The notes: generated by a model not told the origin, from the letters alone. A DNA stretch of 64,000 nt from Deltaproteobacteria bacterium (GCA_016937015.1 JAFGWT010000273.1:22878-86877), one strand, 5' to 3'. Shown: positions 7,780 to 51,530, numbered from the stretch's first letter. A program made the numbers and translations.

Positions 7780-7786
7780 CACAATT

Positions 7787-11172: not shown

Positions 11173-11220
11173 CGAGGGCTATGATGGTGCGCGCTTAATC
11201 TTGCAGGTGAAAGTTGCGAT

Positions 11221-15414: not shown

Positions 15415-16061
15415 ACGTTTCACTGCCCCAGCTCCCGTTTGCCCCTGCCCTCTTCCCACATTGCTTTTTGTTTTGCACTTGCCCAGCATGATTTGATTGC
15501 TATTTAGTCATGACATTAACTGAATTTATCAAGACGCCTGCCGTTAGATTCAGTGCTCATTGCAGAGGCGTTCTCCTGGCTTTCCCCTGGTTGCTTTTGC
15601 GGCACATCATCAGCAGGCTGATTGCCTTTACTTAGGTAAAGAAGCTTGTTGCATACTGATGAACGCGCCAACCTCGCTTCCGAAAACTTGAATGTCACCG
15701 TTGAAACGCACATCGTTTTCTTAATTCAGGTCAACAGGTTTTGTAAAAAAACTCTGAGTCGGCAAGGTTTCCAACTATTTCGGCGGGCACCATCCGCGTC
15801 CTTTTAAAGATACGATGTCACGGTGGACCTTTTGGACGCCAAAAAACCAAGGTATCACAGGCTGTAATGCAACACATCAATAAACAACAGTCTTTTGCGC
15901 CTGATAGTGTTCTTCCACGGACGAGGCGCATCCTACAATAGGCAGGTACTGTTGGTCGTTGCGGTAAACATGCAGCTCTGCGATTGTCAAAGACCGCAAA
16001 TGATAAGTTGCAAACAATAGGGGAATAGGGGAATGAAGCAAATCAGGTGAAATGAGGAGAA

Positions 16062-19210: not shown

Positions 19211-19239
19211 TTGTCAAACAAGCAAGGCATCCCAACGAT

Positions 19240-34196: not shown

Positions 34197-34328
34197 CCCT
34201 TCCTGGAACTTTTTCGAAAAGTCAGATGTCGATGTAGTCATGCCGATTGGTGCGGATTGGCAGTTGCGGGCAGGATAATTGTGGAATCCAAATTGCAATT
34301 CGAAAAGAGCAACATATACTCACACCAA

Positions 34329-37300: not shown

Positions 37301-37934
37301 GTTTGTGCAACACGATGTAATATCGCCAAACCCGGATGGCAGCGCAGCTATCGCGAGCACAGTTACCGCTTCCGGATCCCCTTTTGCGCCATGGCTGAGA
37401 AGCACATTTGCATCTGCGCAACGACAGGATATACTGGAAAACCATTTTTCTGACATGTATTCCGCTGTTACAATAGACCATGCTGACTTTACAGAATTTA
37501 GCCCATTGTCCCCCTCCCCTGTCATAACATTTCAAGGAAACATCCCATCACTTTTTATATTAAAAAGGGGTATTGCGACATTCCGTGCAGCGCCGCCCCT
37601 GAATCTGAAGCAGAAATTCGCCCCCATTGCTAAACGGCAGCATGCGCTGCAAATTGGCCCGGCTCGAAAAGCAACCTACACGGTCCGATATCTGTTGCCG
37701 GCTGGATTTGTTTCAACAACTGAGCCATCCGTCGCGTCAGTTCACACAAAATTTGGTACATATCAACGGGAAATCCAATCCGAAACAAATTGCATCACGG
37801 TGTCGCGTACCTTCGAGATCAATCAACCCCTTGTGCCTGCGTCGCAATATGGTGAATTTGTCAAATTCACTCGTGATGTGGACGTACTCGAAAAAGCGCA
37901 GATTTCAATAAAACAACAGGAGATCACACCGTAA
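34329..37934 (+). CDS. Large secreted multidomain protein with transglutaminase-like cysteine-protease-fold domain (Cys-His-Asp present) and DUF3857-like architecture
   Basis: Signal peptide MNRIGVIFSLLFSLFVPAYG; TGase core GFGDCKDTASLIVTMLNEAGIDAHVALV..FNHAIAYV..WLDGTA. Confidence 0.6.
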   Translation: MNRIGVIFSLLFSLFVPAYGHTHSKALSALQRQPDSRFADLLVLQIFDEYATSGRVVIEAELNAALSLKRLDWAARDRVLYLLAQLKMMSGDYNTANRMFAELGFITDWTIVGPFPHESGSGITDTLSINSEDSSTTPLNLQVAPNCVPSLSRGPCQFSTSWMSHSMGRISFEPLFSPSSNICTLAQTTVHVDNAGVHQLVFGAGGQSQVTVDTKIVLTDTSEYDADINRHALQIPLEKGAHTLTVKICSGESGRAGFYARLIAPEGRPLHSAKASPFEPVSMATPVNAPNKSPLKKMTPSEKSRLAHLGFFAQYAKHTGAVGKDTTVFDAARAACTSLKTVSFCKTFAELSGDINTKLQAWRNVLSATPENREAKLAILLLRARHQLDSDAAYALQELATAKDADINSRCALLEYFTMNLPQTAQHLRVAHMDDADILPGEIRCIADNLKGIPVDLHTAALLDMALRIDFTDYDYQIRRMNMHGRTLENELPKVAAAWKGLGAPPVHGVRALIELARGAGLNRLASDLAKDTRLYAPAVSLYRQDAGKAALFTDQSMGISLLKEALAQSPQNKSLRDYIAHIEPQRSFESAYIVPPSDFLNNKQKCISQKTDCYLVNNTMVRVHENGLASSVSQIVVAIASAEGTRQWQQYSEQFSSNQTIQVLGARIYRADGKVEQATGQATFPVSEPWYRLYYDIEAEVVELPSPEVGDVVEFQFRIDDIGSENMFGEYFGTIVPINAELPVESFQLVIMRPKSLPLQFESSKAVRRDEWIENETVTTVFSDKGIKAIPDEPAAPGAMSLVQYVHATTWTSWAKMEAWYRALIKPQLRHDAELKERVLALTHGAKSRQEKIAAIYNWVTTNIRYVGLEFGIHGYKPYSTTQVLTRGFGDCKDTASLIVTMLNEAGIDAHVALVRTRTAGELNTRFPSLALFNHAIAYVPEFDLWLDGTATFHGTTDMPFEDQGINALVIGLAPMLPRQTKTLRPEDATFVQHDVISPNPDGSAAIASTVTASGSPFAPWLRSTFASAQRQDILENHFSDMYSAVTIDHADFTEFSPLSPSPVITFQGNIPSLFILKRGIATFRAAPPLNLKQKFAPIAKRQHALQIGPARKATYTVRYLLPAGFVSTTEPSVASVHTKFGTYQREIQSETNCITVSRTFEINQPLVPASQYGEFVKFTRDVDVLEKAQISIKQQEITP

Positions 37935-40900
37935 TGAGCAATCTTCCCCAATGGGCTAATTCCGCGCGAGTGATGGCTCTAATATTCTTTGTGCTGGGGT
38001 GTGCCGCCGCTCATTCTCCTGCACACAAAACAGAAACATTAAGCGAAAACCGGACTTTTCTTTCTGCGCCAACAATACCACAGCTGGAGAAGCAATTTAA
38101 GTCCAGCAACCGTGAAGGCGATCTGTTTGTTTTGGCCACTCTTTACGACAAGACTGGTCGCCCTGAATTGGCTTTCAACACATATATTCAGGCAATGGAT
38201 GCAGCCAGTATATCCCCCGGACTTTACTGGGAAGGCATAGGTGCAGCCATTGGCATTGTCAATATCCGGCGCCGGGTAAGGGACTTTGAAAACAGGATTT
38301 ACCCGCATCTCATGAAATGGTCGGCTTCCCCCGGTGCGCTTGCGCCGGAAGCGTTGTATCAGTTACGCACGCTAACGTTCTCCTTCGCACTAAAAAAAGG
38401 AAAGATGAAGCACGCCAGCCAATTGCTGAATCAAACCGGTTGCATCACAGATTGGCTGGTCGCCGGCCCCATCGCGACCGACAAGCGCGGCGCAATTAGC
38501 AGCAAACAGCTTCTGGATTCACGCGTGTGGCCGAGGGAAATTGACGCGGGTGCCGGCCGTCCAAATATGCCTGTGGTTCATAAATCGCTTGGAATCTGCC
38601 AATTGACTGCGCCCCCGGTATCCTCTGCCAGTACAGGCACAATCATTGGCACAACAGCAATACATGTTTCATCGACGGGAGATGCCAGTTTCAGACTGCA
38701 TTCAACATCTGATTCAAAAATTTTTATTAACGGCCATCAGGTGTATTCCCAGCAGAGTCAGACACGTTGGCTTCCGGAAACCCGTTGGTTTACCGTATGG
38801 CTTCCCGCAGGCCACCACCAGATTACCGTGCAGGTATTTTCACCCACTTTTGAACCATCTTTTTCGTTGAGCGTATTGTCATCCAGTCAACGCCCACTGA
38901 CTAACAACAGCACAACCCTGCCAGTGACTACAGAATACAAACCCAATAAAGGCATTACACGCATTGATTCAAAGATGACGGGTGAGTCAACCATTCTGGC
39001 GAGAATGCAATATGCGCTTTGGAACGTGGATCCATACGAGTGGCAAGAATATGCAAAAATGCTCGATGAGAAGTTGCCGCTGCACCGGTTATTCATCGCG
39101 GCGTATCAGCTGATGACTCCGTTCAACGCGCCCGAGGTTGCCATGGAAAGCGCCAGACATCTCTACGCTGGCGTGTTATCAAAAATGCCTACTGCGTTCG
39201 AAGCGTCGGTTTATCTGGCCAAACAGGCGCACAGCAACGGCCGCACCGAAGAATCGATTGGCATGCTTAAAAACGCAATCGCCGCGATGCCTGATGAGCC
39301 AATGCTGCCACTGGTGCTTACTGAAATTGCGTTTGAAAAGGAATGGATACCCGAAACGAGAAAATACCTCTCAATGGCAACCGATATGCTCGGTGACAAC
39401 TGCGAAACCCTGCAATGGAGATATGCTGTTGCGTTGCATGAAAAAAAATTTGATGCGACAATGCAGCTTGCTCACTCAATCAGCCAATGCGCCGCATCAT
39501 CCACTGATTTGGCCACAGAACTCACCAGAGAGGGAGATTTTATGGGCGCCTCAAATATTTTGTGGCGACAGGCCAAACGGCAGCCCAATTCGATGTCGGC
39601 ACAATTAGATGCAGCGCTGAGTTTTGCCCGTTCCGGTGCCCCGGATAGAGGCATCGAATTATTAGAGATTACCCACAGGCAATTTCCACTTTCCAACACG
39701 CCAGTTTTACACCTGATTGACGCGTATCTTGCTTCCAACAAAACTGAGAAGGCACAGGTACTATGCCACCTACAGCACCGAATGCCATCTGATCCTCAAA
39801 CACTCCTTGCGTGTGAGTCGGTCGAACTGACAAACCCGCTTGGTATGTATCGGGTGGATGGACTGAAAACGGTCAATCAGTTTATCAAGAGAGATGACAA
39901 ACCGAAATCGGACTTTTCATGGGTACTGGATCGGACAGTTTACGCGGTTGACAGGTTTGGCACAGGTAATCAATTGGTGCACTCGATTGGATACATCAAT
40001 TCACAGGATGCGGTCTCCGAGTACGGCGAGTTGAGTATTCCTTACGGATCAAAAGTTTTGCAGGCGCGTGTCATCAAACCATCGCTTGAGCAGTTTTATC
40101 CAACACTGGTCGAAGGTAAACCGGGGCTATCGCTGCCCAATCTGGCCGTCGGCGATTTTGTCGAATTGGAAACAATAAGTGCCATTCCTGCGCATTCTGT
40201 ATTTCCAGGCGGGTTCGACACCGAGCCCTTTTATTTCCGGGACTTTAATTCGGCATTCGTAAGATCGGAACTGATAGTCGTTGCGCCTGAATCGTTTAAT
40301 CTGCAATTCGATACACGAGGCGCCGCTCCTCCACCTGTCCATCATTCACTGAACGGAATGCAGGTCGTCACTTTTCGAACCAGAGACCAGCATCCGTTGC
40401 GAATTGAACCGGACACACCGGATGCCCGGGAGTTTTTACCTTCAGTGCGCATTACAGCCCACGCGTCCATTGAATCGGTATGTCAAAATATTAACGAACA
40501 GTTGTATGCGATGTCACAATGGTGTCCGGAGATTGACCAGACGATAACTCGCAGCATCGTCAAACAAAACAATCGCGACGCAAAAATCGAGGCGATATAC
40601 AATTGGATCTCTTTAAACATTGAGGATGACATGATACTGTTTGAGCCTGCCGCCCATGTACTAAGCCGAAAAAGAGGTAGTCGTGCCCGGCTGTTTATAC
40701 AAATGCTCGCACAGGCAAATATCGATGCAGAACTGGGGTTGGCAATGACTGCGTTCGATGACCATACACCCGCTACCGTTGCTGATGTGAACCGCTATAC
40801 GGTTCCTGTGGTTAAATTGCCGAACGGTAAATGGATCAGTTTTCAGGAACGACATGCTCCTTTAGGGACCTTACCTTCGGAGTTGCGACATCAGCCGGTT

Positions 40901-41590
40901 TTGCTGCCCAAAAATTGCCGTATTGAAAAGACAGATGCGGGCACTGTCCCATTTGAAAGTTCCACTGTTACCGCCGAACTAAACATTGATCAACAGGGGA
41001 ACGCAACAGGAACAGTAACCGAACTGATTGAAGGCGATACCGCAGCCATACTTCGGTCGCTACTGGAGAGTCCCGAATCCGAACACCGGAAGCTTTTCGA
41101 GGAACATTTACTGTCGGCTCTTTTCCCGGATGCAGTGCTCACAGCATTTTCCGTGGAAAACACGCGCGAGGTTCAACTACCACTCAAAATAGTATACAAT
41201 GTAGCCGTTTCACAGATCATCAAACAGGCCAATAATGTCGCACGCATGTTCGTTCCTATGCCAGTCAGTTTTGAACAGTTCACCAATGGCATTGCCAGTC
41301 GTGAATTGCCACTTGTATTGGCAACATATCTAAAAAACAGCCGTAAAATACATTTAAACCTGCCGTCCAATATGATCATTCAACAGCTGCCCGAAAATCA
41401 CTGTGAACAATCAGCCAACACCGTCGCGAGCTATTGTATGCAATTCAAATCCTCAGAAGACTCAATATACATAGATATGGAAGCCATTATTAATATCCAG
41501 CGAATCCCGGCCAGACACTACACGGATTTTCAGAATTTCATACTGACAACCAAACAAATGAACAGTTCATCTATTGATATCCAATACTAA
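37934..41590 (+). CDS. Paralogous large lipoprotein with degenerate (Cys-less) transglutaminase-like domain
   Basis: Lipobox FFVLGCAAA; N-terminal region homologous to upstream gene (G(F/C)ITDW.(V/A)GP); TGase position reads KRGSRARLFIQMLAQANIDAELGLA (no Cys/His); start overlaps upstream stop (TAATG). Confidence 0.6.
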   Translation: MSNLPQWANSARVMALIFFVLGCAAAHSPAHKTETLSENRTFLSAPTIPQLEKQFKSSNREGDLFVLATLYDKTGRPELAFNTYIQAMDAASISPGLYWEGIGAAIGIVNIRRRVRDFENRIYPHLMKWSASPGALAPEALYQLRTLTFSFALKKGKMKHASQLLNQTGCITDWLVAGPIATDKRGAISSKQLLDSRVWPREIDAGAGRPNMPVVHKSLGICQLTAPPVSSASTGTIIGTTAIHVSSTGDASFRLHSTSDSKIFINGHQVYSQQSQTRWLPETRWFTVWLPAGHHQITVQVFSPTFEPSFSLSVLSSSQRPLTNNSTTLPVTTEYKPNKGITRIDSKMTGESTILARMQYALWNVDPYEWQEYAKMLDEKLPLHRLFIAAYQLMTPFNAPEVAMESARHLYAGVLSKMPTAFEASVYLAKQAHSNGRTEESIGMLKNAIAAMPDEPMLPLVLTEIAFEKEWIPETRKYLSMATDMLGDNCETLQWRYAVALHEKKFDATMQLAHSISQCAASSTDLATELTREGDFMGASNILWRQAKRQPNSMSAQLDAALSFARSGAPDRGIELLEITHRQFPLSNTPVLHLIDAYLASNKTEKAQVLCHLQHRMPSDPQTLLACESVELTNPLGMYRVDGLKTVNQFIKRDDKPKSDFSWVLDRTVYAVDRFGTGNQLVHSIGYINSQDAVSEYGELSIPYGSKVLQARVIKPSLEQFYPTLVEGKPGLSLPNLAVGDFVELETISAIPAHSVFPGGFDTEPFYFRDFNSAFVRSELIVVAPESFNLQFDTRGAAPPPVHHSLNGMQVVTFRTRDQHPLRIEPDTPDAREFLPSVRITAHASIESVCQNINEQLYAMSQWCPEIDQTITRSIVKQNNRDAKIEAIYNWISLNIEDDMILFEPAAHVLSRKRGSRARLFIQMLAQANIDAELGLAMTAFDDHTPATVADVNRYTVPVVKLPNGKWISFQERHAPLGTLPSELRHQPVLLPKNCRIEKTDAGTVPFESSTVTAELNIDQQGNATGTVTELIEGDTAAILRSLLESPESEHRKLFEEHLLSALFPDAVLTAFSVENTREVQLPLKIVYNVAVSQIIKQANNVARMFVPMPVSFEQFTNGIASRELPLVLATYLKNSRKIHLNLPSNMIIQQLPENHCEQSANTVASYCMQFKSSEDSIYIDMEAIINIQRIPARHYTDFQNFILTTKQMNSSSIDIQY

Positions 41591-41711: not shown

Positions 41712-42335
41712 ATGCAAGGACTGACAAAAAGACAGGAAAAAGTGCTCGATTACATCACCAGCTCAATTACGGAACGCGGTTATCCGCCTACGTTGAGGGA
41801 GATTGGGCGCCATATGGGAATTCGATCAACGAATGGGGTCAACGACCACCTGCGTGCTTTGGAGCGCAAAGGATATTTAAAACGCGAAGATATGAAATCC
41901 CGCGCACTCAGACCTGTAAACATGGAAGACAAAAAGCAGTCCGATACGGTCAAAATTCCAGTTGTAGGCCGTGTCGCCGCGGGCCAGCCTGTGCTGTCAG
42001 AGCAGAACATTGAAGACTACGTTACAGTCGATCGTTTTCTTATCGGTAATACAAAAGAAGTTTTTGGGATGTGGGTTCACGGTGATGCCATGTTGCAGGC
42101 GGGAATACACAACGGCGATTTTATTTTTGTAAAAAAACAGATGTTCGCCGAAAAAGGTGATGTCGTGGTTGCATTGCTTGGTGATAACGCCGCAGTTCGT
42201 TATTATCATCCGGAGCGTGACCATATTCGCTTTGTACCAGCCAACACCAATTGCGCGCCAATCATGGTTCGACGTCAGGATTTCCTGCCCATGCAGCTAC
42301 TGGGTGTCGTTACCGGCATTTACAGACGCCTGTAG
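41712..42335 (+). CDS. lexA: LexA-family repressor with both catalytic dyad residues substituted (Ser->Ala, Lys->Arg)
   Basis: LexA wHTH N-domain (LTKRQEKVLDYI..GYPPTLREIG..), linker with VVGRVAAGQP (Ala-Gly site kept), S24 domain; aligned to E. coli LexA GMSM->GDAM and VTVKRL->AAVRYY. Confidence 0.8.
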   Translation: MQGLTKRQEKVLDYITSSITERGYPPTLREIGRHMGIRSTNGVNDHLRALERKGYLKREDMKSRALRPVNMEDKKQSDTVKIPVVGRVAAGQPVLSEQNIEDYVTVDRFLIGNTKEVFGMWVHGDAMLQAGIHNGDFIFVKKQMFAEKGDVVVALLGDNAAVRYYHPERDHIRFVPANTNCAPIMVRRQDFLPMQLLGVVTGIYRRL

Positions 42336-42371: not shown

Positions 42372-43493
42372 TCAGAGTCTCTCTCTTGTTTCGAAAATCG
42401 CTGCGTATATGTTTGCGATGTCTGAACTGGTCAAAGCAACCGGGTGGTTTTTCAATCGTTCGATGTTCACCTGTTCCATTAAACGCATCATCTGTGTCCC
42501 GGAGATGTTGAATCGCATCTCTCCCAAAACCCGGCGGTATGCGTCGAGCATACATTTTTGAAAGGCCATAAAACCCGCAACAAAATCACTGCCCCATGGC
42601 ATCAACACTTTATCAAGCGCTGCCGAACTGTCTCTAAAGAAGCCATATTTTTGCGCCATAAGCTGTATCAGCGGCCCCATCACCAGCAGCACAGCGATCC
42701 CATGAGGTATTCCCAGCTCAGCAGTAAGACCGTAGCTCAGTGCATGTCCCGCAGTTGTTTTGGTAATATTTATGGCTTTGCCAGCCAAATTCGCAGCCCG
42801 GAGCAAATTCTGCCTCGCTGCATGGTGCGCTGGAGTCGTCAGAACAAGCGTTAAATTGTCAGGAATTATCTGCAAGGCCGACAGGGCGTATGACCGTGAC
42901 GTATCGGTGGCCTTCGGTGACCAGAATGACTCAATCGATTGACAAAACGCATCCACGCCACTTGCGATGGTCACCGACGGTGGACATGTAATGGTAAGGG
43001 ACGCATCCAGCACCGTCCAGTCAGGAAGCAACGTGTCGTGAGCGACGGAATACTTACGCCCATTCTGGTAAGCAACGGCAAAATGGGTTGCCTCACTACC
43101 GGACCCGGCTGTCGTTGGCGCGACCCAAAATAACGGCCTGTCTTTCCCACGAATCTCATTTCGCAATAAATCAAACGCGGATGTGCCCATTGCGATGGCA
43201 AGCAGCAGTTTCGAGGTGTCGATAACGCTGCCGCCGCCAATTGCAACGATCAAATCGAGCTGCCGCAGCGGAAGTGTTGTCGACAGACTGGCAATGAAGT
43301 CTATGTCGGGATTAGAGGGAATATTGCTGATACAAATCAGATTTTGAATATCAATATCATGCTGTATCGCGGACAGTGCTGCCGCAAAGGCGCGTCCATG
43401 CAAAACAAGGACATTTTTAAAATGCCGTTCAGACGCAGCAGCAAGCATGCGCCGGATAACGCCTTCACCAACTGCATCAGTATCTGCGTTCAT
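42372..43493 (-). CDS. Group III iron-containing alcohol dehydrogenase; putative phosphonoacetaldehyde reductase (FomC/PhpC-like)
   Basis: Fe-ADH motif GGGSVIDTSK; start overlaps upstream stop (ATGA 43490-43493); last gene of the PEP-mutase operon. Confidence 0.6.
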   Translation of the reverse strand: MNADTDAVGEGVIRRMLAAASERHFKNVLVLHGRAFAAALSAIQHDIDIQNLICISNIPSNPDIDFIASLSTTLPLRQLDLIVAIGGGSVIDTSKLLLAIAMGTSAFDLLRNEIRGKDRPLFWVAPTTAGSGSEATHFAVAYQNGRKYSVAHDTLLPDWTVLDASLTITCPPSVTIASGVDAFCQSIESFWSPKATDTSRSYALSALQIIPDNLTLVLTTPAHHAARQNLLRAANLAGKAINITKTTAGHALSYGLTAELGIPHGIAVLLVMGPLIQLMAQKYGFFRDSSAALDKVLMPWGSDFVAGFMAFQKCMLDAYRRVLGEMRFNISGTQMMRLMEQVNIERLKNHPVALTSSDIANIYAAIFETRERL

Positions 43494-44635
43494 TTAATTA
43501 TTTTATCCATAAATGTGTGTTTATTGTCGATTGGCGTTGTGGTTGGACGCCCCAGATCCTCGCGAGCGCCCTTCTTTATCACAAATTCAATAAATGCAGG
43601 GCCCTGCTTCTTCCTGATGTCATCCATCGCGGTGTGCAATTCAGTAATGCTCCGGACGGTCACCGTCGACTTGTATCCACAGGCACTGGCAATTGATGCG
43701 AACGAAATTTGCCTGCCAATGGTGGGCTGCCCCCCAACCGAATCATGTGCGCCGTTATTCAGTACAAAATGCAAAAATGACGATGGGGCGTATTGCGCAA
43801 TCAGCGGCAGTGCACCCATGTGCATCAGCACAGCGCCATCGCCGTCAATGCACGCAACGGGGCTATCCTGGTAGCCGGCAATTCCCAATGCAATCATTCC
43901 GGCATGGCCCATCGATCCCACGGTTAAAAAATCCCGGTGGTGCCCCTGATTCAGCCTCTCTCGTATCTCAAAAATTTCACGGGAAGTCATTCCGGTTGTG
44001 GAGACAATTTTTGTTTTCTCGTTTACCATTGCCAGAATTGATTCCACCGCCTGCTCACGGGTCATCAGTTCGGTTTCGGCCACGTCTGGCACTGCCGTAT
44101 CTGCGCCGGCGACACTGTACTTTCCAAAAGCTCCCTTGGGCACAAGCAATAACACCGGGGTGGACGCTGCCTTCATTTGCCGGGAAAGCCGCTCTATCTG
44201 CAATCGGACTTCATCCGTATTTGACGCCAGTATTTCATGTGGATACCCGATGGCGCTCATTAAATCCATTTGCACTTTTCCCTGTTTTACATGTTGCGGT
44301 TCGTCTTTTATCCCCGGCGCGCCGCGCCAGCCAATCATTACAAGCATGGGGATACTGTATACATCCGGATCAGCCAGAGACAATAACGGGTTAATCGCAT
44401 TTCCAATGCCTGAATTCTGCATGTAAACCAGTCCCGACTCTCCCGTTGCCAGGTGGTACCCTGTCGCTAAACCAATCGCCGCGCCCTCATTGGCTGCGAT
44501 AATGTGCTGCCGCTCTGGAAATTGATCCGTAACGCAGGCGCAGAATTCCTTTAACAGGGAATCCGGCACTCCCGTAAAAAAGCTGAAGCCGCTGGCCTTA
44601 AGTAGATTAACAAAACTGGACGGATCTAGCATCAT
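43490..44635 (-). CDS. ppd: ThDP-dependent phosphonopyruvate decarboxylase
   Basis: N-terminal [13 protein letters not shown]; ThDP-binding GDGA..NN ([31 protein letters not shown]); coupled to neighbours by ATGA overlaps. Confidence 0.7.
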
Positions 44636-45933
44636 GCCCCTCCCAGCGGAATCAGCTCAAGAATTTCCCTGATGGGCAGCAATCCGGATCTCGCCTCGTA
44701 AGCCCGCTGATGAGTCAGTATACTGCGAGCGGTTTGCATCATGGCCGGGTATGCGCTGCGTATAAGCTGGTTTGCGTAAATGATCACATTGGCCCCTGCT
44801 CTTGAGAGCTCGTCTTCGTAAATGGTGTCATATGTTGTCGGCACAACAACAACTGGCACTTTGCGACTGAAATTTCGATAAGCATCAAGAAATGCGAGGA
44901 TCTCATCGGGAGTCTCCTGTTTGGAATGAATCATTATGCCATCCGCACCGGCAGCAATATAGCTCCTGGCCCGTAACAGCGCATCGTCAATCCCCTGTTT
45001 GAGAATCAGGCTTTCGATTCGCGCGATAATCATAAAGTCATCGCTTACCTGGGCGCGCTTCCCCGCAGCAATTTTCTGTGTAAAATGCTCAATACTATCC
45101 TGATTTTGTGGCACTTCCAGCCCATACAGGGAATTTCTTTTAAGACCTATTTTATCTTCAATAATGACAGCGGACACACCCAGTCGCTCCAGCGTGCGGA
45201 CCGTAAAAATAAAGTGTTCGGTTTTTCCCCCGGTATCGCCATCGAAGATGATGGGTTTGGTGGTCACTTCAAGCAGATCGTTAATATTGGTTAACCGTGC
45301 TGAAATATCGACTGCTTCTATATCGGGCTTTCCTTTTGCGGTGGAATCTGTCAGGCTGGATGCCCACATTGCATCAAATTCGCGACGTTTGCCATTGACT
45401 TCCACATACGTCTCCTCAACGATGCGACCGGTTAGCCCGCTATGCGCCTCAATAACGCGAACCACTTCTTTTGCCTGAATGAGCCGCCGCAACCGCAATC
45501 GACGAACGTCGGGACTGATGCCAACTTCACGGATAGCCTTGTTTAATTGCGTGGAGGAAATACCTGTAGTGTATGAAAGCTCAACAAGCTGCCCCCCCCA
45601 TTGCTGCAGAGTATCGATAACCTGCTGCCGGGTTTCCTTCTGAACCCCCTCTTTCCAGTCATCGCCATGAACCACAAAGTCCGGACGAAGTTGTTCAAGA
45701 TTAGGACGGTAATCCAGAGTCTCCTGCGCAACAACACGGCTTACACCTTTTAATCCCTCAACCACTGCTTTCCGCTGTTCAAATTCCAGATACGGCAGGC
45801 GTTTGTAACTTGCGATGGCTCTGTCTGTCAGCAGACCGACCGTTAATTCCCCAAGTTTCGCTGCTTCCCTGATGATATTCATGTGACCGGGATGCACTAA
45901 ATCGGCACTCATCCCTACATACACGGTTTTCAT
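44632..45933 (-). CDS. Bifunctional TagD-like cytidylyltransferase / phosphoenolpyruvate phosphomutase (Fom1-like fusion)
   Basis: Residues 1-135 align to glycerol-3-phosphate cytidylyltransferase ([32 protein letters not shown]); residues ~140-433 are PEP mutase ([40 protein letters not shown]). Confidence 0.8.
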
Positions 45934-46033
45934 AAGATTTATTCCTTCGTTAAATTACGCTGTCGACAAACGTCACTCAAAACATGAAAAAAATGATACT
46001 ATTTCGCTTTTATGCGGCTGTCTATAAAGAGTG

Positions 46034-46048
46034 TCTGCAGCCTGCAGA
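46034..46048. promoter_or_regulatory. Perfect 7-1-7 palindrome TCTGCAGcCTGCAGA in the divergent intergenic region of the phosphonate locus (candidate operator)
   Basis: Read directly; lies midway in the 277-bp region between the divergently transcribed operons. Confidence 0.25.
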
Positions 46049-46210
46049 ATATCTTTCTGAATTTGAGCGCAACAAGGCCACATGAACCCCGGCAATCACG
46101 CACAGACAGCGACGATATTTGTTTCATTTTTGTGACAATTATTGTAAGCAACAACGACCGATTTTCCTGAGCCAAACAGAAAGACAACCTTCAACCAAGA
46201 TCATTGAATC

Positions 46211-49200
46211 ATGTCTGATTTTTTTTATACCGTTTTTATCTATCCATTGGAATTTCTGATGAAGTGTGTGATGGAAACGGTTCTGAATAATACGGGAGAC
46301 CCCATTCTTTCTCTCGTTGCTGTAAGCGCGTTTGTTTCAATTGGGTCATTACCGCTGTATCACATTGCCGAGAAATGGCAGGACAACGAACGGGCCATTC
46401 AGGAAAAGCTTCAACCCAAAATAAGAGAATTTAAAAGCGTATTCAAAGGCGCCAGCCTCAACGCTTATATTCAAACGCTGTATCGACAAAACGAGTATCA
46501 TCCGGTAATGGCGATTCGTGCTGTATTGGGGATACTGATTCAGATTCCCTTCTTCATCGCCGCTTACCATTTGCTATCCGAATATCCGGCATTCGAGGGC
46601 GTTTCCGCTATATTTTTTAACGATCTGGGTCGCCCGGATGGTTTGATCAAACTTGGAAGTTTAAGTATCAATGTGCTTCCTTTCCTGATGACTGGCGTCA
46701 ATATTCTGTCCGCAGTGATTTACGGCAAGAAACTTGGGACAAAGGAAAAAATTCAAACATATGGCATCGCCGGCGTATTTCTTGTGGCGTTGTATTCATC
46801 GCCGGCATCTCTTCTCTTTTACTGGACATCAAACAACATTTTCAGTCTGGCCAAAAATGGCATATATCGACTGATTTATCCTGACGGAAGAATTAAATCC
46901 ACGCAGCAGAATGAAACACGGATCTGGCCAATATTTCTTCGGATTTCCGCGTTGCGCCCCTCGACATGGGGACAGATAACTCTGTTTGTTTTAACGCTGG
47001 CGCTGTATCTCATTGCGCCGGAATTCACAAAGCCTAACTCTGAAACACAGGGACAGCTTTATGGCCTGATCTACACCGTGTTGCTAATGCTGGGCGGATT
47101 GACGATCGCTGGCGCGCTGGCCAATAAAACAATGCGACGCAGCGCCAGAAATACGACTGCCGCGGTTTATGGCATCGTTGTTCTTATTTCATTGGGACTG
47201 CAACTGGTATGGATGCTGAATGTGGTGCCGGACGTTAAATTCACCCAATACGCCGCCAATAGCCTGTTCGCTTTAATGTTTTTTAACGGCGCGCGCAGTG
47301 TTTTCGCTCTCTGGTCCAACTGGATAGCAAAAAACGAACTTGAAGTCACCACACGCCCCGGGACGCTGTTTGCGCTTGCCGTGCTGACCCTCCTGACCAC
47401 AATTTTTATTGCTGTCCCGTTGCCGCTTGTTTCAACCGCCAGTGTTGGTGATTTCGAAAAATCGCTTTCTTATTATCTATTTTTTATGCTGATGCTGGTT
47501 GTTTCCTTTTTTATACTCAGCTGCGTTGTGTATTCGTATCTGTCCAGAGCATCCCGTAGCCTCCTTATCTACATCATCAGTTTCCTTGCAATCCTGTCAC
47601 TGGTCAATGCCTTCGTGTTTGCAGGCGAATACGGTGATATGAGCAATTTCAATTTCGAAAATGGTCTGCCGGAAGAACCCGTCGCCAAAATCGTAAATAT
47701 GTTTGTACTCATCATCATTGGCGGCGGACTCATTCTGCTGTTTCTCAAACGTTTGTACAAATGGCTGTTGCCAGTGTGGATCATATGCCTGCTGTCAATC
47801 GGTGTTGTGACTGTCAGCGAAAGCCATCGGTTTTACCAAAAGAGTCAAAAGATATCCCTTAAGTTCGCGCAGGCTTCGCAGCTTGACAAGCAATTTGTTT
47901 TTTCGAGGACGCAGCCAAATGTTCTGGTGATCATGCTTGACCGATTTGTTGGAGGTATGGTGCCCAAAGCATTTGAGCTGGCGCCGGTGTTAAAGAGTCA
48001 GTTTGAAGGATTCACGTGGTATCCGCAATATTTTTCCGATGGTGCATTCACCATTTTAGGGGTGCCTTCGCTGATGGGGGGATGGGAATATCATACAAAA
48101 GAAGTGCAATATACGCGCACGACAATGCCACTCAAACAGAAGCTGGACGAGTCTGCCAGAGTACTGCCATACAATTTCAACAAAGCCGGTTATCAAACAA
48201 CCGTTTTTGCCGATCTTGAGGCATACTTTGATCCCGAAAACAGGAAATACATTGAGCGAACAAAATTTGCGTCATTGAAAGCCCAATACAAGGACCTTTG
48301 GCTGCAGGAGCATCAAAAAAAACTCAAAGAAGATAATGTCAGAGGAAAGCTGGCTATCTTTGGACTTTTCCGAACAGCTCCACCGATATTGCGAAACTAT
48401 ATTTACGACAATGGTGACTGGTTACTCGGTTCGAAGGCAAAAAACACTGACATGGGAAACAAAAGCATCATAGGGGACAAACAGGTATCATTCCTGACAA
48501 CAAATGATGCGCAGATAAATCGTGCTGTTGAAGGGTTCAGCACGCTATACTTTTTGCCTCGCCTGTCAGCAACATCCGACAAAGCGCATAAACAGTTTTA
48601 CTATTTCTCAAATGCATTCACCCACGAACCGGTTATAGCGAACGCGAATTTTGACTTGTCTGTTCACGAGCGAATTTTCTACCCAAGGGATGTGTACGAC
48701 GAGTTTGATGAAAGTATGTATACACTGCAGCATCTGTACACCGACACAACCGCCCTTGTGGCGATTGGAAAATGGTTCGAGTGGATGAAGCAGAACGATG
48801 TATACGACAACACAAAAATAATAGTGGTTTCCGATCATGGCAGAAATGTTTACGATCCTGTTTTAAAATCTCAGAAAATCATCAGTTCACTCAACGCTAA
48901 AAAGCCCGATGCGTCATGGTTTCATGGTTTACTCATGGTGAAGGATTTTGGGCAAAAAGGGGCCATGCGAAAAAGCAATCAGTTTCTCACGACGTGTGAT
49001 GTTCCGTGGCTGACCATGAAAGACATTGTCACCAATCCAATCAACCCGACATCGAAAAAGAAAATCGTGTTCAACGCAGACAGGTATCCATTCTCCATGT
49101 TTTTCACGCCACCGATGATCTGGCAGCAGACAAAATATAAATACAAGGTGAAAGATATTTTCGAGATTCAGCGTAAAAATGATGTCCTGGATCCGGCGAA

Positions 49201-49225
49201 ATGGAAGCGCGTTAATGTTAAATAG
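46211..49225 (+). CDS. Fusion membrane protein: N-terminal YidC/Oxa1-family insertase core (5 TM), additional TM region, C-terminal sulfatase/LtaS-like (alkaline-phosphatase superfamily) extracytoplasmic domain
   Basis: Residues ~3-225 align to the YidC core (LPLYHIAEKW..LQPKIREF..LYRQNEYHP..LIQIPFFIAAYHLL..FFNDL..VLPFLMTGVNIL..LLFYWTSNNIFSLAKNGIYR); C-terminal VLVIMLDRF..FTILGVPSLMGG..IIVVSDHG matches the LtaS/EptA/sulfatase fold without a CxPxR sulfatase motif. Confidence 0.65.
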   Translation: MSDFFYTVFIYPLEFLMKCVMETVLNNTGDPILSLVAVSAFVSIGSLPLYHIAEKWQDNERAIQEKLQPKIREFKSVFKGASLNAYIQTLYRQNEYHPVMAIRAVLGILIQIPFFIAAYHLLSEYPAFEGVSAIFFNDLGRPDGLIKLGSLSINVLPFLMTGVNILSAVIYGKKLGTKEKIQTYGIAGVFLVALYSSPASLLFYWTSNNIFSLAKNGIYRLIYPDGRIKSTQQNETRIWPIFLRISALRPSTWGQITLFVLTLALYLIAPEFTKPNSETQGQLYGLIYTVLLMLGGLTIAGALANKTMRRSARNTTAAVYGIVVLISLGLQLVWMLNVVPDVKFTQYAANSLFALMFFNGARSVFALWSNWIAKNELEVTTRPGTLFALAVLTLLTTIFIAVPLPLVSTASVGDFEKSLSYYLFFMLMLVVSFFILSCVVYSYLSRASRSLLIYIISFLAILSLVNAFVFAGEYGDMSNFNFENGLPEEPVAKIVNMFVLIIIGGGLILLFLKRLYKWLLPVWIICLLSIGVVTVSESHRFYQKSQKISLKFAQASQLDKQFVFSRTQPNVLVIMLDRFVGGMVPKAFELAPVLKSQFEGFTWYPQYFSDGAFTILGVPSLMGGWEYHTKEVQYTRTTMPLKQKLDESARVLPYNFNKAGYQTTVFADLEAYFDPENRKYIERTKFASLKAQYKDLWLQEHQKKLKEDNVRGKLAIFGLFRTAPPILRNYIYDNGDWLLGSKAKNTDMGNKSIIGDKQVSFLTTNDAQINRAVEGFSTLYFLPRLSATSDKAHKQFYYFSNAFTHEPVIANANFDLSVHERIFYPRDVYDEFDESMYTLQHLYTDTTALVAIGKWFEWMKQNDVYDNTKIIVVSDHGRNVYDPVLKSQKIISSLNAKKPDASWFHGLLMVKDFGQKGAMRKSNQFLTTCDVPWLTMKDIVTNPINPTSKKKIVFNADRYPFSMFFTPPMIWQQTKYKYKVKDIFEIQRKNDVLDPAKWKRVNVK

Positions 49226-50477
49226 CATCCTGTTATATTTGGATCCCGGTTCCGGAAGTATGTTGCTCTCGGCGGTGGCGGGCATTATTGCAACGCTCTA
49301 TTTCCTGATAAAAGGGGTATTCTTCAAGTTGCTCAATATGCCCGCATATCTGTCGGGAAAAAGAACAAAATCGGCTATCAAAGACAAAATTGTGTTTTAT
49401 TCAGAGGGCGGCCAGTACTGGAACGTTTTCAAGCCCATTATTGAAGAACTGAATCACCGCGAAATATCCTGCCTCTACCTTACAAGCAAAGAGAACGACG
49501 AAGGTCTTTCGTGCGGACTTGATCACGTTAAAACGAAGTATATTGGCGAGGGAAACAAAGCCTATTTCGTTCTCAATACGCTCAGTGCGGAACTGCTAAT
49601 CATGACCACGCCGGGAGTTGATGTTTTGCAAATCAAACGCAGCAGAGGTGTAAGGAAATACGTACACATAACCCATTCGGCCGGTGGTTGCAGCGGATAT
49701 GCCACCTATGGTGTAGACTATTACGATGTGGTCCTGACAGGAGGAACCGGCGACAAGGCAATGATTGAGGATTTGGAACGCGCTCGCGGCACTCACAAAA
49801 AAGATATTAGAATCATCGGATGCACATATCTTGATGTTCTCAGAAAAAAACTGCGTGAAACCGATGCTGAGCTTTATTTTGAGCGCGTTCGACCCACCAT
49901 TATGCTGTCGCCCACGTGGGGATTGCACGGGTTGCTCAGAAAATCCGGTGAAACTATTTTAAAACAGCTCACTTTGCTCGACAGGTACAATATAATTGTC
50001 AGACCGCACCCCCAGGCGTTTATTTCAGATAAAGATGTAATGGAAAAACTTACGGCACTGTTTCCCGACAGTGAAACCTTACGGTGGGATAACGCGCCTG
50101 ATGGCCTGAATTCAATGCGCCAGTCCGATATGATGATTAGCGATTTTTCAGGGGTTCTGTTTGATTACATTTTCCTTTTTGAAAAGCCGGTGCTGTCATT
50201 TAAAGGACATTATGACAAAAGAGGCCACGACTCGATGGACCTCAGCGATGACCCATGGAATCTGCGCATGCTTGAAAAAACAGGCCTCTCAATTAGCCAC
50301 GATGATCTGAGCACATTGCCCGACATTGTGGAGAATCAGCTCAAAGGGGGCACAGCGATAAGCACCTTTCTCGATGAACTGCGTGATGGGATGGACAAAT
50401 ATCCCGACCTTTCCGGTATTCGCGGCGCAGACGCTGTTGAGTCACTCCTCATGGCAAACGATGCGCAAATTTCCTGA
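49179..50477 (+). CDS. TagB/TagF-type CDP-alcohol phosphotransferase (Glyphos_transf family)-like protein
   Basis: LSPTWG..(TagF YAPTWR-like), IVRPHPQ, MMISDFSGVLFDYIFL (TagF ITDYSSV.FD-like); start overlaps upstream gene (49179 or 49215). Confidence 0.7.
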   Translation: MMSWIRRNGSALMLNSILLYLDPGSGSMLLSAVAGIIATLYFLIKGVFFKLLNMPAYLSGKRTKSAIKDKIVFYSEGGQYWNVFKPIIEELNHREISCLYLTSKENDEGLSCGLDHVKTKYIGEGNKAYFVLNTLSAELLIMTTPGVDVLQIKRSRGVRKYVHITHSAGGCSGYATYGVDYYDVVLTGGTGDKAMIEDLERARGTHKKDIRIIGCTYLDVLRKKLRETDAELYFERVRPTIMLSPTWGLHGLLRKSGETILKQLTLLDRYNIIVRPHPQAFISDKDVMEKLTALFPDSETLRWDNAPDGLNSMRQSDMMISDFSGVLFDYIFLFEKPVLSFKGHYDKRGHDSMDLSDDPWNLRMLEKTGLSISHDDLSTLPDIVENQLKGGTAISTFLDELRDGMDKYPDLSGIRGADAVESLLMANDAQIS

Positions 50478-50660: not shown

Positions 50661-51530
50661 ATGTATAAAGTAATCGTAGCGAGTGCTGTTACCCTGCTGC
50701 TTGTTGCATGCAATAAACCATGCCCCGAATGCAAACAGGAAGAGCCTCAAAAAGTGGAAGTTACCAAAAAAGAACTGAAAGATCTCAACGATAAGTTAAA
50801 TTATTCAGTGGGTTACGACGTCGGTCGCTCCGCCGCCCGAAACCAGATGGAACTCAAGGACGAAATATTCCTCAAAGGCGTAAAAGACGGCATGAACGAC
50901 GAAGAAAATCCCGAAGCCGCACTCATGGATGATAAAGAGCGCATTGAAACCAAGCGTGAGCACTCCAAAATCAGAAGAGAAGAAGAGCGCAAGCAACGGG
51001 AAGTCGAAGCGGTTGAGAATAAAAAGAAAGCCGATGCCTTCATGGCTGAAAACAAAAGCAAGGAAGGCGTAATCACCACCGAAACGGGTCTCCAGTACAT
51101 CATCGAAAAAGAGGGTGATGGTCCCAAACCCGCCATGGAAGACAGAGTGTCGGTTCACTACAAGGGGACACTCATTGATGGTACAGAGTTCGACAGTTCC
51201 TACAAACGCAACCGCCCGGCAACGTTCCCGGTGGGCCGTGTTGTCAAAGGCTGGACCGAAGCGCTCCAGCTGATGCCTGTAGGATCCAAATGGAAGCTGT
51301 TTATCCCACCGGATTTGGGATATGGCGAACGCGGCGCTGGCTCAAAAATCGGTCCCAACAGCGCATTGATTTTCGAGATTGAACTGCTTGAAATCATCAG
51401 TGGCGAAGAAACTGCCCCGGGGGCCCCAGCGGCATCCGGAAAACCAGCCCCCCCCAAACCGGCTGCAAAAAAATCGCCAGTTGCACCAGCCCCGGCGGCA
51501 GCCGCTGCTCAGCCTGCTGCTGCTGAATAG
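50661..51530 (+). CDS. FKBP-type peptidyl-prolyl cis-trans isomerase lipoprotein (FkpA/Mip-like) with Ala/Pro-rich C-terminal tail
   Basis: Lipobox LLVAC; FKBP core [52 protein letters not shown]. Confidence 0.8.

Follow-up and report, generated by a model that had tools for sequence, protein, structure and literature searches.

[quoted passage not shown] It represents a real, widespread, and apparently unstudied family of membrane proteins. FUS probably moves small phosphate or phosphonate groups, in this window 2-hydroxyethylphosphonate (HEP), from the cytoplasm to the cell surface, and we infer that it makes up one half, in the membrane and the periplasm, of a conserved machine for envelope decoration that has a TagF-like enzyme as its partner.

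The open reading frame (ORF) was present as an earlier note on this DNA had described it, and its product was identical to MBN2716709.1, encoded on an 88-kb MAG contig and labeled at NCBI as ‘YidC/Oxa1 family membrane protein insertase’. A database search recovered relatives in at least 2,400 protein clusters (2,423 50%-identity clusters at E<=1e-30) and in genomes of at least 579 species; the ‘unusual fusion’ of the earlier note is no rare oddity. An assembly or frameshift artefact joining two genes is refuted, because the same full-length architecture of YidC fold and AP domain recurs in hundreds of independent assemblies, complete Treponema genomes among them, and the confident AlphaFold2 model (mean pLDDT 88.8, pTM 0.81) is continuous across the domain junctions. 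No published account of a YidC-fold/AP-domain fusion was found in the literature searched.

Residues 1-225 (46211..46885) comprise an amphipathic N-terminal helix, five core TM helices, and a cytoplasmic C1 hairpin. Pfam 60KD_IMP (PF02096) matched residues 57-216 with E=1.1e-19 and 71.5 bits (gathering score 35), bearing out the proposed five-TM YidC core. As in YidC/Oxa1/Alb3 insertases, the core is complete, is preceded by the amphipathic helix, carries the cytoplasmic coiled-coil hairpin, and keeps most canonical motifs (Q-x-P in TM2, LPxxM in TM3, and Y-W-x-x-N in TM5). Neither a P1 domain nor a signal peptide was found at the N-terminus in the alignment and the AlphaFold2 model, and the chain opens directly with the amphipathic helix, so that the likeness to the Gram-positive and Oxa1 forms also stands. 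No other part of the protein is as well conserved as this module, whose median identity to the query is 48%, compared with 17% for the middle TM helices and 31% for the AP domain.

The family nevertheless differs from YidC/Oxa1/Alb3 in the groove of this module, where S/T/N replaces the groove arginine throughout. This arginine is R72 in B. halodurans YidC2 and R366 in E. coli YidC, whose structures are PDB 3WO6/3WO7 and 3WVF, respectively. Alignments to both proteins placed Ser43 of FUS (46337..46339) at this site. The arginine was absent in 120/120 fused relatives (column S/T/N/G/V) and in 79/79 stand-alone YidC-like relatives (column N/S/T); thus, canonical YidC behavior need not hold for this module. 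The earlier note had missed this absence. Lys215 in the last core TM helix (46853..46855), at the place of a Gln in B. halodurans YidC2, is invariant in the fused forms, whereas among the 79 stand-alone forms 71 have K here and another 7 have R; it may represent the groove charge in a new position. Other polar residues of the module, S39, N154, T161, N164, T206, and N208, are like K215 invariant and specific to the family, and are kept in fused and stand-alone forms. The C1 hairpin is strongly conserved in both forms alike.

The invariant Lys, the extra invariant Asn and Thr residues of the bundle, and the highly conserved C1 hairpin all separate the family from YidC/Oxa1/Alb3. Unlike those proteins, the fused form has no free C-terminal tail, and the module is fused to, or encoded beside, enzymes. 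FUS scored 67.5 bits with NCBIfam TIGR03592 (yidC_oxa1_cterm), below the cutoff of 84.3, and fell far under all cutoffs of the YidC equivalog models. The ORFs can be multiple per locus (about two to six fusion-family ORFs in 34/79 loci by a crude ORF call) and are found in glycan loci, not in the rnpA-yidD-yidC context. The neighbors of FUS itself are phosphonate, TagF-like, and glycan genes instead of rnpA-yidD-yidC-mnmE, in accord with the non-housekeeping context noted earlier, and no second YidC-like gene was detected within the window. Relatives are routinely annotated in public databases as ‘membrane protein insertase YidC’, although they have no groove arginine and are sited in glycan loci. 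This mislabeling contaminates YidC paralogue counts and the inferences drawn from them.

Nine further TM helices were predicted from hydropathy and the AlphaFold2 model in residues 226-556 (46886..47878), the least conserved part of the protein. Gap analysis showed that residues 230-253 and 320-375 are missing from most relatives, which have fewer helices. Alignment to full-length PbgA and MCR-1 covered more FUS residues than alignment to their catalytic domains alone. Because these nine helices separate the two domains, the catalytic domain is predicted to be extracytoplasmic, as the earlier note had supposed.

The AP-superfamily domain (residues 557-1004, 47879..49222) was matched by Pfam Sulfatase (PF00884) over residues 569-887 with E=1.7e-8 and 34.6 bits, above the gathering score of 25. 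The three motifs by which the domain had been recognized hold the catalytic positions of the family: the invariant predicted metal ligand Asp577 in VLVIMLDRF (47939..47941), the predicted nucleophile Thr614 in FTILGVPS (48050..48052; Thr in 119 of 120 relatives and Ser in one), and the invariant predicted metal ligands Asp875-His876 in VVSDHG (48833..48838). His805 (48623..48625) is also invariant. The C/S-x-P/A-x-R motif of formylglycine (S1) sulfatases was absent at the nucleophile site in 120/120 relatives, consistent with the non-sulfatase, LtaS/EptA-type assignment. Judged by motif equivalence and profile alignment, the Thr nucleophile and the putative Asp/Thr/Asp-His metal site are those of the LtaS/EptA-type transferases. 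FUS further resembles this group (LtaS/LtaP, EptA/EptC/MCR-1, GacH, BcsG, and PbgA) in that a multi-TM N-terminal region is followed by an alpha/beta AP core outside the membrane, and in its siting in cell-surface polymer loci. It differs in having 14 TM helices instead of 5, an N-terminal YidC module, a TagF-like partner in most loci examined, and a donor that is presumably tailor-made, in place of bulk PG or PE. For this domain, a PDB search with the single FUS sequence gave no hit at E<=1, and a family-profile search gave marginal matches to LtaS (E=0.0017-0.002) and MCR-1 (E=0.13-0.3). Neither the EptA N-terminal domain nor an NCBIfam model of these transferases matched FUS. On this sequence evidence, the domain is a separate subfamily outside the LtaS and EptA families, with LtaS and LtaP as structural neighbors. 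By analogy only, its donor would be a lipid head group. Some family members carry a C-terminal NPCBM carbohydrate-binding module.

Immediately downstream lies the TagF-like partner gene (49215..50477, + strand; 420 aa), which encodes MBN2716710.1, a ‘CDP-glycerol glycerophosphotransferase family protein’ at NCBI. From the partner start codon to the FUS stop codon, the two genes overlap by 11 nt (ATGTTAAATAG, 49215..49225, + strand), a layout typical of translational coupling; the median gap across loci was -3 bp. A TagF-like gene was present in 62/80 loci and in 34/37 loci of at least 20 kb, and was on the same strand within 100 bp of the FUS-type gene in 61/71 cases. Several FUS paralogues can share a locus with one TagF-like gene, as expected if one donor serves several acceptors. 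The overlapping gene and its invariant peptide, described below, had been overlooked in the earlier note.

The partner matched PF04464 above the gathering score and has a GT-B fold with PTW, RPHP, and SDxSG motifs in the nucleotide-binding half, features that it shares with TagF/TagB/TarL, Cps3D, and Bcs3. A single TM helix is predicted at its N-terminus, with the GT-B domain in the cytoplasm; in the window, a short acidic tail precedes this helix. Unlike the TagF/TagB/TarL group, it is a minimal protein with an N-out TM anchor, is linked to CMP-phosphonate or other CDP-head-group pathways, and is encoded beside a YidC-like module in most loci examined. A further difference is its N-terminal peptide, Y-L-D-P-G-S-G-S (49236..49259, + strand), which is usually exposed by signal-peptide cleavage. 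The form YLDPG(S/T)GS was invariant in 67 locus-derived partners and was found in 113/120 database partners, directly following a Sec-type signal peptide in about 100 of the 113; the peptide is predicted to be extracytoplasmic.

A phosphonate operon diverges from FUS on the - strand. It encodes a Fom1-type cytidylyltransferase (PF01467, EDKxxxxxNS motif present) fused to PEP mutase (Ppm; 44632..45933), phosphonopyruvate decarboxylase (Ppd; 43490..44635; TIGR03297 E=5e-145, above cutoff), and a Fe-dependent alcohol dehydrogenase (42372..43493; Pfam Fe-ADH), a candidate phosphonoacetaldehyde reductase that would yield HEP. The best NCBIfam match of the last was TIGR03405 Phn_Fe-ADH, below cutoff; PhpC is a precedent for such a reductase (PMC8942020), and HEP is the substrate of the cytidylyltransferase Fom1 (Rice et al. 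2019, PMC6697681). From its gene content, the operon should make CMP-HEP, not AEP, and CMP-HEP is the predicted donor of the partner in this window. In the 277-bp divergent intergenic region (45934..46210), promoter prediction made no call above shuffled controls.

The location in a phosphonate locus, stated in the earlier note, holds for this window, but the link is facultative, with true Ppm in 19/80 FUS loci. The phosphonate route most commonly found beside the module is HEP (11 loci vs 4 with AEP), and other loci contain AEP pathways or other nucleotidyltransferase fusions; on this genomic evidence, phosphonate is only one cargo of FUS-type modules. The loci resemble the Pnt/Lic (PntC, LicC, LicD) and Fom1/Fom2/FomC pathways in combining a Ppm-cytidylyltransferase fusion with Ppd and either Fe-ADH (HEP) or AEPT (AEP), with a CMP-activated phosphonate bound for the cell surface. 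The window has no Fom3-type methyltransferase, unlike fosfomycin biosynthesis, and the product is therefore not fosfomycin. The ‘Pnt’ steps have been called enigmatic, and the attachment of CMP-activated phosphonates to surfaces is an acknowledged gap (PMC6697681). Whereas a LicD-like transferase is proposed in the literature, the TagF-like enzyme and the YidC-AP protein are concrete candidates for this attachment. Cultured carriers exist, among them Treponema sp. OMZ 798/799, T. putidum, T. pectinovorum, Neptunomonas qingdaonensis, and Erysipelothrix urinaevulpis.

The YidC-like part also occurs as a separate 220-240-aa protein beside a TagF-like gene, the two being adjacent in 6/6 split loci examined. 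Loci L040 and L080 have three separate genes (YidC-like, TagF-like, and TM+AP), L083 has the YidC-like/TagF-like pair beside two separate AP proteins, and Erysipelothrix has a separate YidC-like gene next to what is tentatively a TagF~AP fusion. The AP step is not universal: no AP gene was found within 8 kb in L084, and in L082 the place of the AP protein is taken by a 13-TM protein lacking the DHG motif.

We suggest, as a tentative model given somewhat less than an even chance, that FUS and its partner form a machine that loads a lipid, carries the head group over to the outer side of the membrane, and transfers it to a surface glycan. The divergent operon would supply CMP-HEP, a close analogue of CDP-glycerol, and at the cytoplasmic face the TagF-like enzyme would load a membrane-lipid carrier with the hydroxyethylphosphonyl group. 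The YidC-like module would dock the partner; the conserved C1 hairpin would touch the cytoplasmic domain, while the TM bundle and outer face of the module would touch the anchor and the N-terminal peptide. The head group would cross the bilayer in the polar groove of the module, and Thr614 of the AP domain would then take it off the lipid and hand it on to a glycan or glycolipid of the surface. Elsewhere, the module is paired with AEP or non-phosphonate cargoes. Such load-flip-transfer logic would be that of GtrABC, ArnC/E/F/T, and CsbB-GtcA-YfhO, each of which combines a loader in the cytoplasm with a small translocator in the membrane and a polytopic transferase that faces outward, and the chemistry would be of the LtaS/EptA/GacH type. 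These systems also have variable or multiple transferase components and are found in the same loci as FUS. There is no homology of components, and FUS and its partner have no GT2, GtrA/EamA, or GT-C domains. The cargo would be a head group (phospho- or phosphono-) instead of a sugar, and the presumed translocator has a YidC fold instead of a GtrA/EamA fold. In favor of the decoration model are the fold and catalytic residues, the linkage to the partner gene, the split loci as Rosetta-stone evidence, the signal peptides ahead of the invariant partner motif, the conservation of the YidC module, phospholipid scrambling by Oxa1-family proteins, the cargo genes, and the surface-glycan context. TagF-family enzymes are not known as makers of simple head-group lipids, which normally come from CDP-alcohol phosphatidyltransferases; their known targets are lipid-linked glycans or polymers. 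This speaks against the decoration model, as do the missing groove arginine, the split loci without an AP protein, and the lack of a lipid-synthesis gene recurring with the module (a DAG-kinase-like gene was found in one locus only).

The use of the YidC groove for lipid or substrate access, raised in the earlier note, is still the idea with the most support, although it is unproven. A bolder reading, which we consider less likely than not, is that in thousands of bacteria the YidC/Oxa1 fold was exapted from protein insertion to become a dedicated subunit of a machine for small-molecule decoration. It would grip the TagF-like anchor and YLDPG(S/T)GS and serve as a flippase or scramblase conduit for a tailor-made phospho- or phosphono-head-group lipid used outside by the attached LtaS/EptA-like domain. 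Scrambling of phospholipids in vitro is documented for E. coli YidC and further members of the Oxa1 family (PMC11047089). For insertases, this activity has to date been seen in vitro and in silico, and a YidC fold permanently joined to a transferase that depends on lipid would offer a natural experiment on its physiological use. If exaptation is correct, FUS would be the first natural Oxa1-superfamily member with a lipid head group, not a protein, as its physiological cargo, and the missing transferase steps of bacterial surface tailoring with phosphonates (HEP/AEP) would be identified.

Less probable than the decoration model is that the YidC fold only docks the partner, as a permanent receptor for the TM anchor and N-terminal peptide resembling a frozen insertion intermediate, without moving lipid. 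The two would form a trans-membrane complex, the cargo would exit otherwise, for example as Und-PP-glycan via Wzx, and the AP domain would perform a separate periplasmic step. An invariant peptide outside the membrane, belonging to an enzyme that is cytoplasmic in all other parts, implies that the contact is fixed, and the conserved C1 hairpin, the Wzx-type flippases of some loci, and the YidC-like/TagF-like pair as the invariant core, even without a nearby AP gene, all agree with docking. On the other hand, docking explains neither why polar residues within the TM bundle are invariant and specific to the family nor the frequent fusion of an AP-type transferase to exactly this module, and a five-TM fold at 48% identity across phyla is rarely needed for simple docking.

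The TagF-like enzyme might instead build a polymer on a lipid anchor, either from HEP, whose hydroxyl is free, or from glycerol phosphate; the YidC-like module and extra TM helices would export this teichoic-acid-like chain, and the AP domain would ligate or extend it in the manner of LtaS. The similarity of CMP-HEP to CDP-glycerol, the polymerases TagF, TarL, Cps3D, and Bcs3 as the closest relatives of the partner, the structural proximity of LtaS and LtaP, and the predominance of HEP among coupled phosphonate routes are in its favor. We regard it as improbable all the same: the same module is also paired with AEP pathways, and AEP cannot polymerize because it has no hydroxyl; the 420-aa partner lacks the extra domains of polymerases; and we know of no precedent for polymer export via a YidC groove.

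Still less likely is a genuine insertase acting on its own downstream TM helices, as the earlier note had alternatively proposed, or on the N-out anchor of the partner. The complete YidC fold with most canonical motifs would suit this role, and the short acidic tail and single TM helix of the window's partner have the classic shape of a YidC-only substrate. Against it, no member has the groove arginine, and LtaS and EptA-type enzymes insert without any such module. The Sec signal peptides on about 100/113 partners mean that no special insertase is needed, and the stand-alone forms together with loci that have as many as about six fusion-family ORFs (crude ORF call) point to a stoichiometric subunit rather than a biogenesis catalyst. 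A degradative role of the AP domain, as a membrane-tethered sulfatase, phosphonate monoester hydrolase, or phosphodiesterase for scavenging or remodeling, is very unlikely in view of the Thr nucleophile without a formylglycine motif, the strict coupling to biosynthetic genes (nucleotidyltransferases, TagF-like, and glycosyltransferases), and the membrane-embedded, transferase-like architecture.

FUS carriers include host-associated spirochaetes (oral and gut Treponema, Brachyspira), rumen and gut Clostridia, and Sutterella, in which zwitterionic or phosphonate surface decorations probably influence recognition by the immune system as well as resistance to phosphatases and cationic peptides. 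FUS loci are surface-glycan loci adjoined by GtrII/EamA/GT2 modification modules; in Treponema, a GT2 and EamA pair and GtrII genes adjoin FUS.

The fusion gene (FUS) is a single ORF of 1004 aa on the plus strand (46211-49225) and encodes the same protein as NCBI record MBN2716709.1, which belongs to an 88-kb contig of the 'Deltaproteobacteria bacterium' MAG. [quoted passage not shown] Pfam bears this out, with both domains above the gathering score: 60KD_IMP/YidC at residues 57-216 (E=1.1e-19, 71.5 bits, gathering score 35) and Sulfatase at residues 569-887 (E=1.7e-8, 34.6 bits, gathering score 25). In NCBIfam, only YidC models matched FUS, each under its own cutoff (TIGR03592, 67.5 versus 84.3 bits). 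A search for the same architecture elsewhere recovered hundreds of full-length relatives: at least 281 (835-1257 aa), sharing both Pfam domains, in a word-indexed search, and 2,423 cluster representatives at E≤1e-30 in an exhaustive profile search of 1.84 billion representatives, the best 150 of which all had the full-length architecture. When one genome per species was scanned, relatives turned up in at least 579 species. This recurrence in hundreds of assemblies, complete genomes included, rules out an assembly or frameshift artefact and refutes the possibility, raised in that note, that a frameshift had fused two genes.

The layout of FUS was taken from a structure model and hydropathy. It comprises an amphipathic N-terminal helix (residues 2-28), five YidC core helices (about residues 31-50, 98-123, 156-172, 177-193, and 199-222), a C1 hairpin (residues 51-93), nine further TM helices (residues 252-552), and a soluble domain (residues 557-1004). 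The loop charges obey the positive-inside rule, with the YidC core predicted to be in its normal orientation; because the number of added helices is odd, the catalytic domain is predicted to be extracytoplasmic.

Most canonical YidC motifs are retained in the family, apart from the groove arginine (R72 in B. halodurans YidC2, R366 in E. coli YidC), which aligns to Ser43 of FUS; in 120 fused relatives this column holds S, T, N, G, or V and never Arg. The module has its own invariant polar residues (S39, N154, T161, N164, Y171, T206, N208, and K215) and a strongly conserved C1 hairpin (A53, Q57, E60, R61, F78, G80, Y91, R92, and Y96). Lys215, whose alignment counterpart in B. halodurans YidC2 is Gln, could be a relocated groove charge. 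A housekeeping YidC is ruled out by the missing groove Arg, the sub-threshold score, the glycan context, and the fact that many loci hold several fusion-family ORFs. Median identity to the query was 48% for the YidC-like module, 31% for the AP domain, and 17% for the middle TM helices. Since the YidC-like module is the best-conserved part of FUS, it is probably more than a mere membrane anchor, for which such conservation would not be expected.

To compare gene neighborhoods, we used the best-matching 79 loci from the species scan together with the window (80 loci), with ORFs called by a simple script and then clustered. The 79 loci are mostly from Spirochaetota (Treponema, Brachyspira), where T. 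putidum and T. pectinovorum are each represented by the type strain, and also from Lachnospiraceae, other Clostridia, Sutterella, Desulfovibrio, Sumerlaeota, and Neptunomonas. In the window, FUS is followed by a TagF-like gene (PF04464; MBN2716710.1; 49215-50477, plus strand), the start of which overlaps the end of FUS, stop codon included, by 11 nt. Homologues of this partner were present in 62 of the 80 loci (34 of the 37 loci of at least 20 kb), and in 61 of 71 cases partner and FUS lay on the same strand and at most 100 bp apart, with a median gap of -3 bp.

All locus partners carry an invariant N-terminal peptide, Y-(L/I)-D-P-G-(S/T)-G-S, immediately N-terminal to a TM helix (codons 49236-49259 in the window; likewise in the partners of the related loci L001-L084), and the motif was found in 113 of 120 partners of an independent database set. 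In about 100 of these 113, a classical Sec signal peptide with an A-x-A-like end directly precedes the motif, which is therefore predicted to form the mature extracytoplasmic N-terminus of a protein with a cytoplasmic enzyme domain. In the window partner, only seven residues (MLNSILL) stand ahead of the motif Tyr, and the signal peptide is absent. A conserved outward peptide on a cytoplasmic enzyme implies that something in the membrane or periplasm binds it, for which FUS would be the obvious candidate. We found no description of this N-terminal motif in the literature searched.

In six split loci, the YidC-like part is encoded by a gene of its own. In L040 (1437-5259) and L080 (8001-11788), the system consists of three tightly packed genes, of which one encodes the YidC-like protein (223-230 aa) and another the TagF-like protein (430 aa). 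The third product (597 aa) has a DHG motif and about five TM helices; Pfam Sulfatase matches it in L040, and in L080 it has zero Pfam matches. The L080 locus is laid out divergently as in the window, but with an AEP (alternative phosphonate cargo) pathway (PntC-AEPT, Ppd, and CT-Ppm, a cytidylyltransferase fused to PEP mutase). In L083, the YidC-like and TagF-like pair adjoins genes for two separate proteins with a sulfatase domain, and the locus has a fused FUS too. In L081 of Erysipelothrix urinaevulpis (5189-11728), the genes stand in this order: a sulfatase-domain protein (619 aa), a DAG-kinase-like (DAGK_cat) protein, a stand-alone YidC-like protein of 224 aa, and a TagF-like protein of 1018 aa. 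The C-terminal third of the last has about six TM helices and DHG; because the Pfam Sulfatase match (E=1.3e-3) and the HHalign match at the metal motif (E=3.5e-4) are both weak, we regard it only tentatively as a TagF-AP fusion. The third gene of L082 encodes a 13-TM protein without DHG. In L084 (8001-13600), the YidC-like and TagF-like pair is directly followed by CT-Ppm, Ppd, and an Fe-alcohol dehydrogenase (Fe-ADH), with no third or AP-domain gene within 8 kb, so that this system may do without the AP step, or a gene at another site may supply it. Alignment of the separate AP proteins with the FUS profile was confined to the DHG motif region; judged by this, they are members of the AP superfamily and not close relatives of FUS. 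Stand-alone YidC-like proteins, such as WP_159519199.1 and the 223-aa protein of L080, are common (205-250 aa in 79 of the best 120 matches) and have N, S, or T at the arginine position, with the other invariant residues the same as in fused forms. In all six split loci the YidC-like gene adjoins the TagF-like gene and every partner has the motif. Thus, the YidC-like and TagF-like pair is the invariant core, usually joined by an AP-type transferase as third component, which is often fused.

In the AP domain of FUS, the catalytic positions D577, H805, D875-H876, and K911 are invariant among 120 relatives, and T614 is Thr in 119 of them. The formylglycine motif (C/S-x-P/A-x-R) occurs in 0 of the 120, confirming the earlier remark that a CxPxR sulfatase motif is missing; this and the Thr nucleophile rule out a formylglycine sulfatase. 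Judging from the residue pattern, the catalytic set is the signature of LtaS/EptA-type phosphotransferases and not of sulfatases. At the sequence level, the domain is marginally related to these types (LtaS, E=0.002 with the family profile) and so forms its own subfamily; a PDB search with the single AP-domain sequence gave zero matches. PbgA and MCR-1 aligned over 342 and 320 residues at full length versus 263 and 249 with the isolated catalytic domain, which suggests that the last TM helices and the AP domain of the modeled FUS may together resemble a complete LtaS/EptA/PbgA-like unit. Two family members, P0025 (1257 aa) and P0029 (1247 aa), have an NPCBM carbohydrate-binding module after the AP domain; its C-terminal position rules it out as an N-terminal P1-like domain.

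The divergent operon of the window encodes a PF01467 cytidylyltransferase with the EDKxxxxxNS motif fused to PEP mutase, a phosphonopyruvate decarboxylase (NCBIfam), and, as the third gene, an Fe-ADH (42372-43493, minus strand), which among NCBIfam models comes closest to the one for phosphonate-cluster Fe-ADH, with a score below cutoff. As this gene is not an aminotransferase or AEP transaminase, an 'AEP locus' is ruled out. Fe-ADHs of the PhpC/FomC type reduce phosphonoacetaldehyde to 2-hydroxyethylphosphonate (HEP) (PMC8942020), and the PF01467 domain of Fom1 makes CMP-HEP (PMC6697681). On the basis of the Fe-ADH type and the Fom1-type cytidylyltransferase, the operon product is therefore predicted to be CMP-2-hydroxyethylphosphonate, a close analogue of CDP-glycerol.

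Across the loci, the 'CT-Ppm' context cluster (50 of 80) is a single-linkage mix of different nucleotidyltransferase fusions. The exact count of true Ppm is 19 of 80, which rules out a phosphonate-specific module; Ppm is combined with Fe-ADH (HEP route) in 11 loci and with AEP transaminase (AEP route) in 4, HEP-type operons thus being the commoner. In 15 loci (L079:12679-14703 and 14 others), a LicC/MobA-type nucleotidyltransferase (NTP_transf_3) is fused to a HisC/CobD-like PLP enzyme of the histidinol-phosphate aminotransferase/threonine-phosphate decarboxylase family, in 12 of them without Ppm. This fusion is the commonest third partner in Treponema, usually without Ppm, and suggests some CDP-amino-alcohol cargo. 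Further loci have other nucleotidyltransferases. As Ppm is present in only part of the loci and other nucleotidyltransferases in others, the FUS module would be a general handler of CDP/CMP-activated head groups, phosphonate being one option. An ABC importer (SBP_bac_6/8 binding protein, BPD_transp_1 permease, and ATPase) recurs near the module in L029, L046, L063 (e.g., 19233-20207), L070, and L081, and may take up the compound from which the head group is made, for instance AEP or an amino alcohol.

LtaS, EptA, GacH, and BcsG transfer groups from PG or PE. We propose, at a little short of an even chance for the full scheme, that FUS and its partner load, flip, and transfer a head group. With CMP/CDP-X as donor, the TagF-like enzyme would place it on a lipid carrier at the inner membrane face; the YidC-like module would dock the partner and supply a polar transbilayer path; and Thr614 of the AP domain would accept the group and hand it on to an external glycan. 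The system would be similar in logic to the Gtr/Arn/CsbB-GtcA-YfhO systems and, in its presumed chemistry, to LtaS/EptA. Its weak points are that no lipid-synthesis gene was seen to recur with the module and that the AP step is not universal; moreover, no TagF enzyme is known to make simple head-group lipids. The DAG kinase-like gene in L081 hints at a DAG-releasing lipid donor, and such a gene neighbors the module in L081 only (0 of the 79 other loci). Lipid scrambling has been shown in vitro for E. coli YidC and for other members of the Oxa1 family (PMC11047089). That the YidC fold merely docks the partner is unlikely. Synthesis of a polymer carries smaller weight, because AEP cargo cannot be polymerized, which argues for decoration in general. 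Similarly small weight is given to FUS as a true insertase, or as a hydrolase.

Load-flip-transfer would act among surface-glycan genes: the neighbors encode GT2, GT4, WbaP-like, UDP-glucose dehydrogenase, epimerase, DegT, Wzx, and Wzy proteins, and genuine modules for periplasmic modification, with a GtrB/ArnC-like GT2, small EamA proteins in pairs, and GtrII, are nearby. In Treponema (L046:1496-6000, L064, L067, L071, L079, and others), complete GtrABC/Arn-like modules adjoin FUS, each made up of DegT, GT2, a pair of small EamA proteins, and either GtrII or a ~600-aa protein that lacks annotation; surface decoration after export seems to be concentrated at such loci. By our crude ORF call, 34 of the 79 loci have two to about six fusion-family ORFs, usually with only one or two TagF-like genes, a pattern that fits several outward transferases served by one cytoplasmic loader. 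The window version is a compact five-gene cassette (42372-50477) without adjacent glycosyltransferases, and scans for promoters and terminators gave nothing beyond shuffled controls. Neptunomonas qingdaonensis CGMCC 1.10971 (L075), a cultured carrier, has an operon with the same CT-Ppm, Ppd, Fe-ADH, TagF-like, and FUS genes; other cultured carriers are Treponema sp. OMZ 798/799, T. putidum ATCC 700334, T. pectinovorum ATCC 33768, and E. urinaevulpis.

All three component folds are already well known. We found no description of the YidC+AP architecture in the literature searched, the coverage of which leaves out most subscription journals; enzymes of this kind that have a YidC fold fused to them or encoded alongside, in company with a TagF-like enzyme bearing an exported invariant N-terminal peptide, thus appear undescribed. 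There is a realistic, albeit minority, chance that the Oxa1/YidC fold has here been put to a new physiological use. The system also appears to be misannotated at scale. NCBI/JGI label WP_253707138.1, WP_253730590.1, WP_253694927.1, WP_159519199.1, and MBN2716709.1 'membrane protein insertase YidC' or 'YidC/Oxa1 family membrane protein insertase', and such labels stand on both fused and stand-alone members; this naming is probably systematic over-annotation.

A LexA gene of the window (41712-42335) is closely preceded by two adjacent giant ORFs (1225 and 1218 aa; 34257-37934 and 37934-41590, plus strand), which contain DUF3857 and transglutaminase-like or TPR domains and have no evident link to FUS. 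Just downstream of the partner gene is one for an FKBP-type peptidyl-prolyl isomerase (50661-51530, plus strand), the N-terminus of which resembles that of a lipoprotein and the C-terminal tail of which is rich in Ala and Pro. In L080, an FKBP_N+FKBP_C gene (15126-15776) is likewise found downstream of the split system, a few genes away, a recurrence that may be coincidence.
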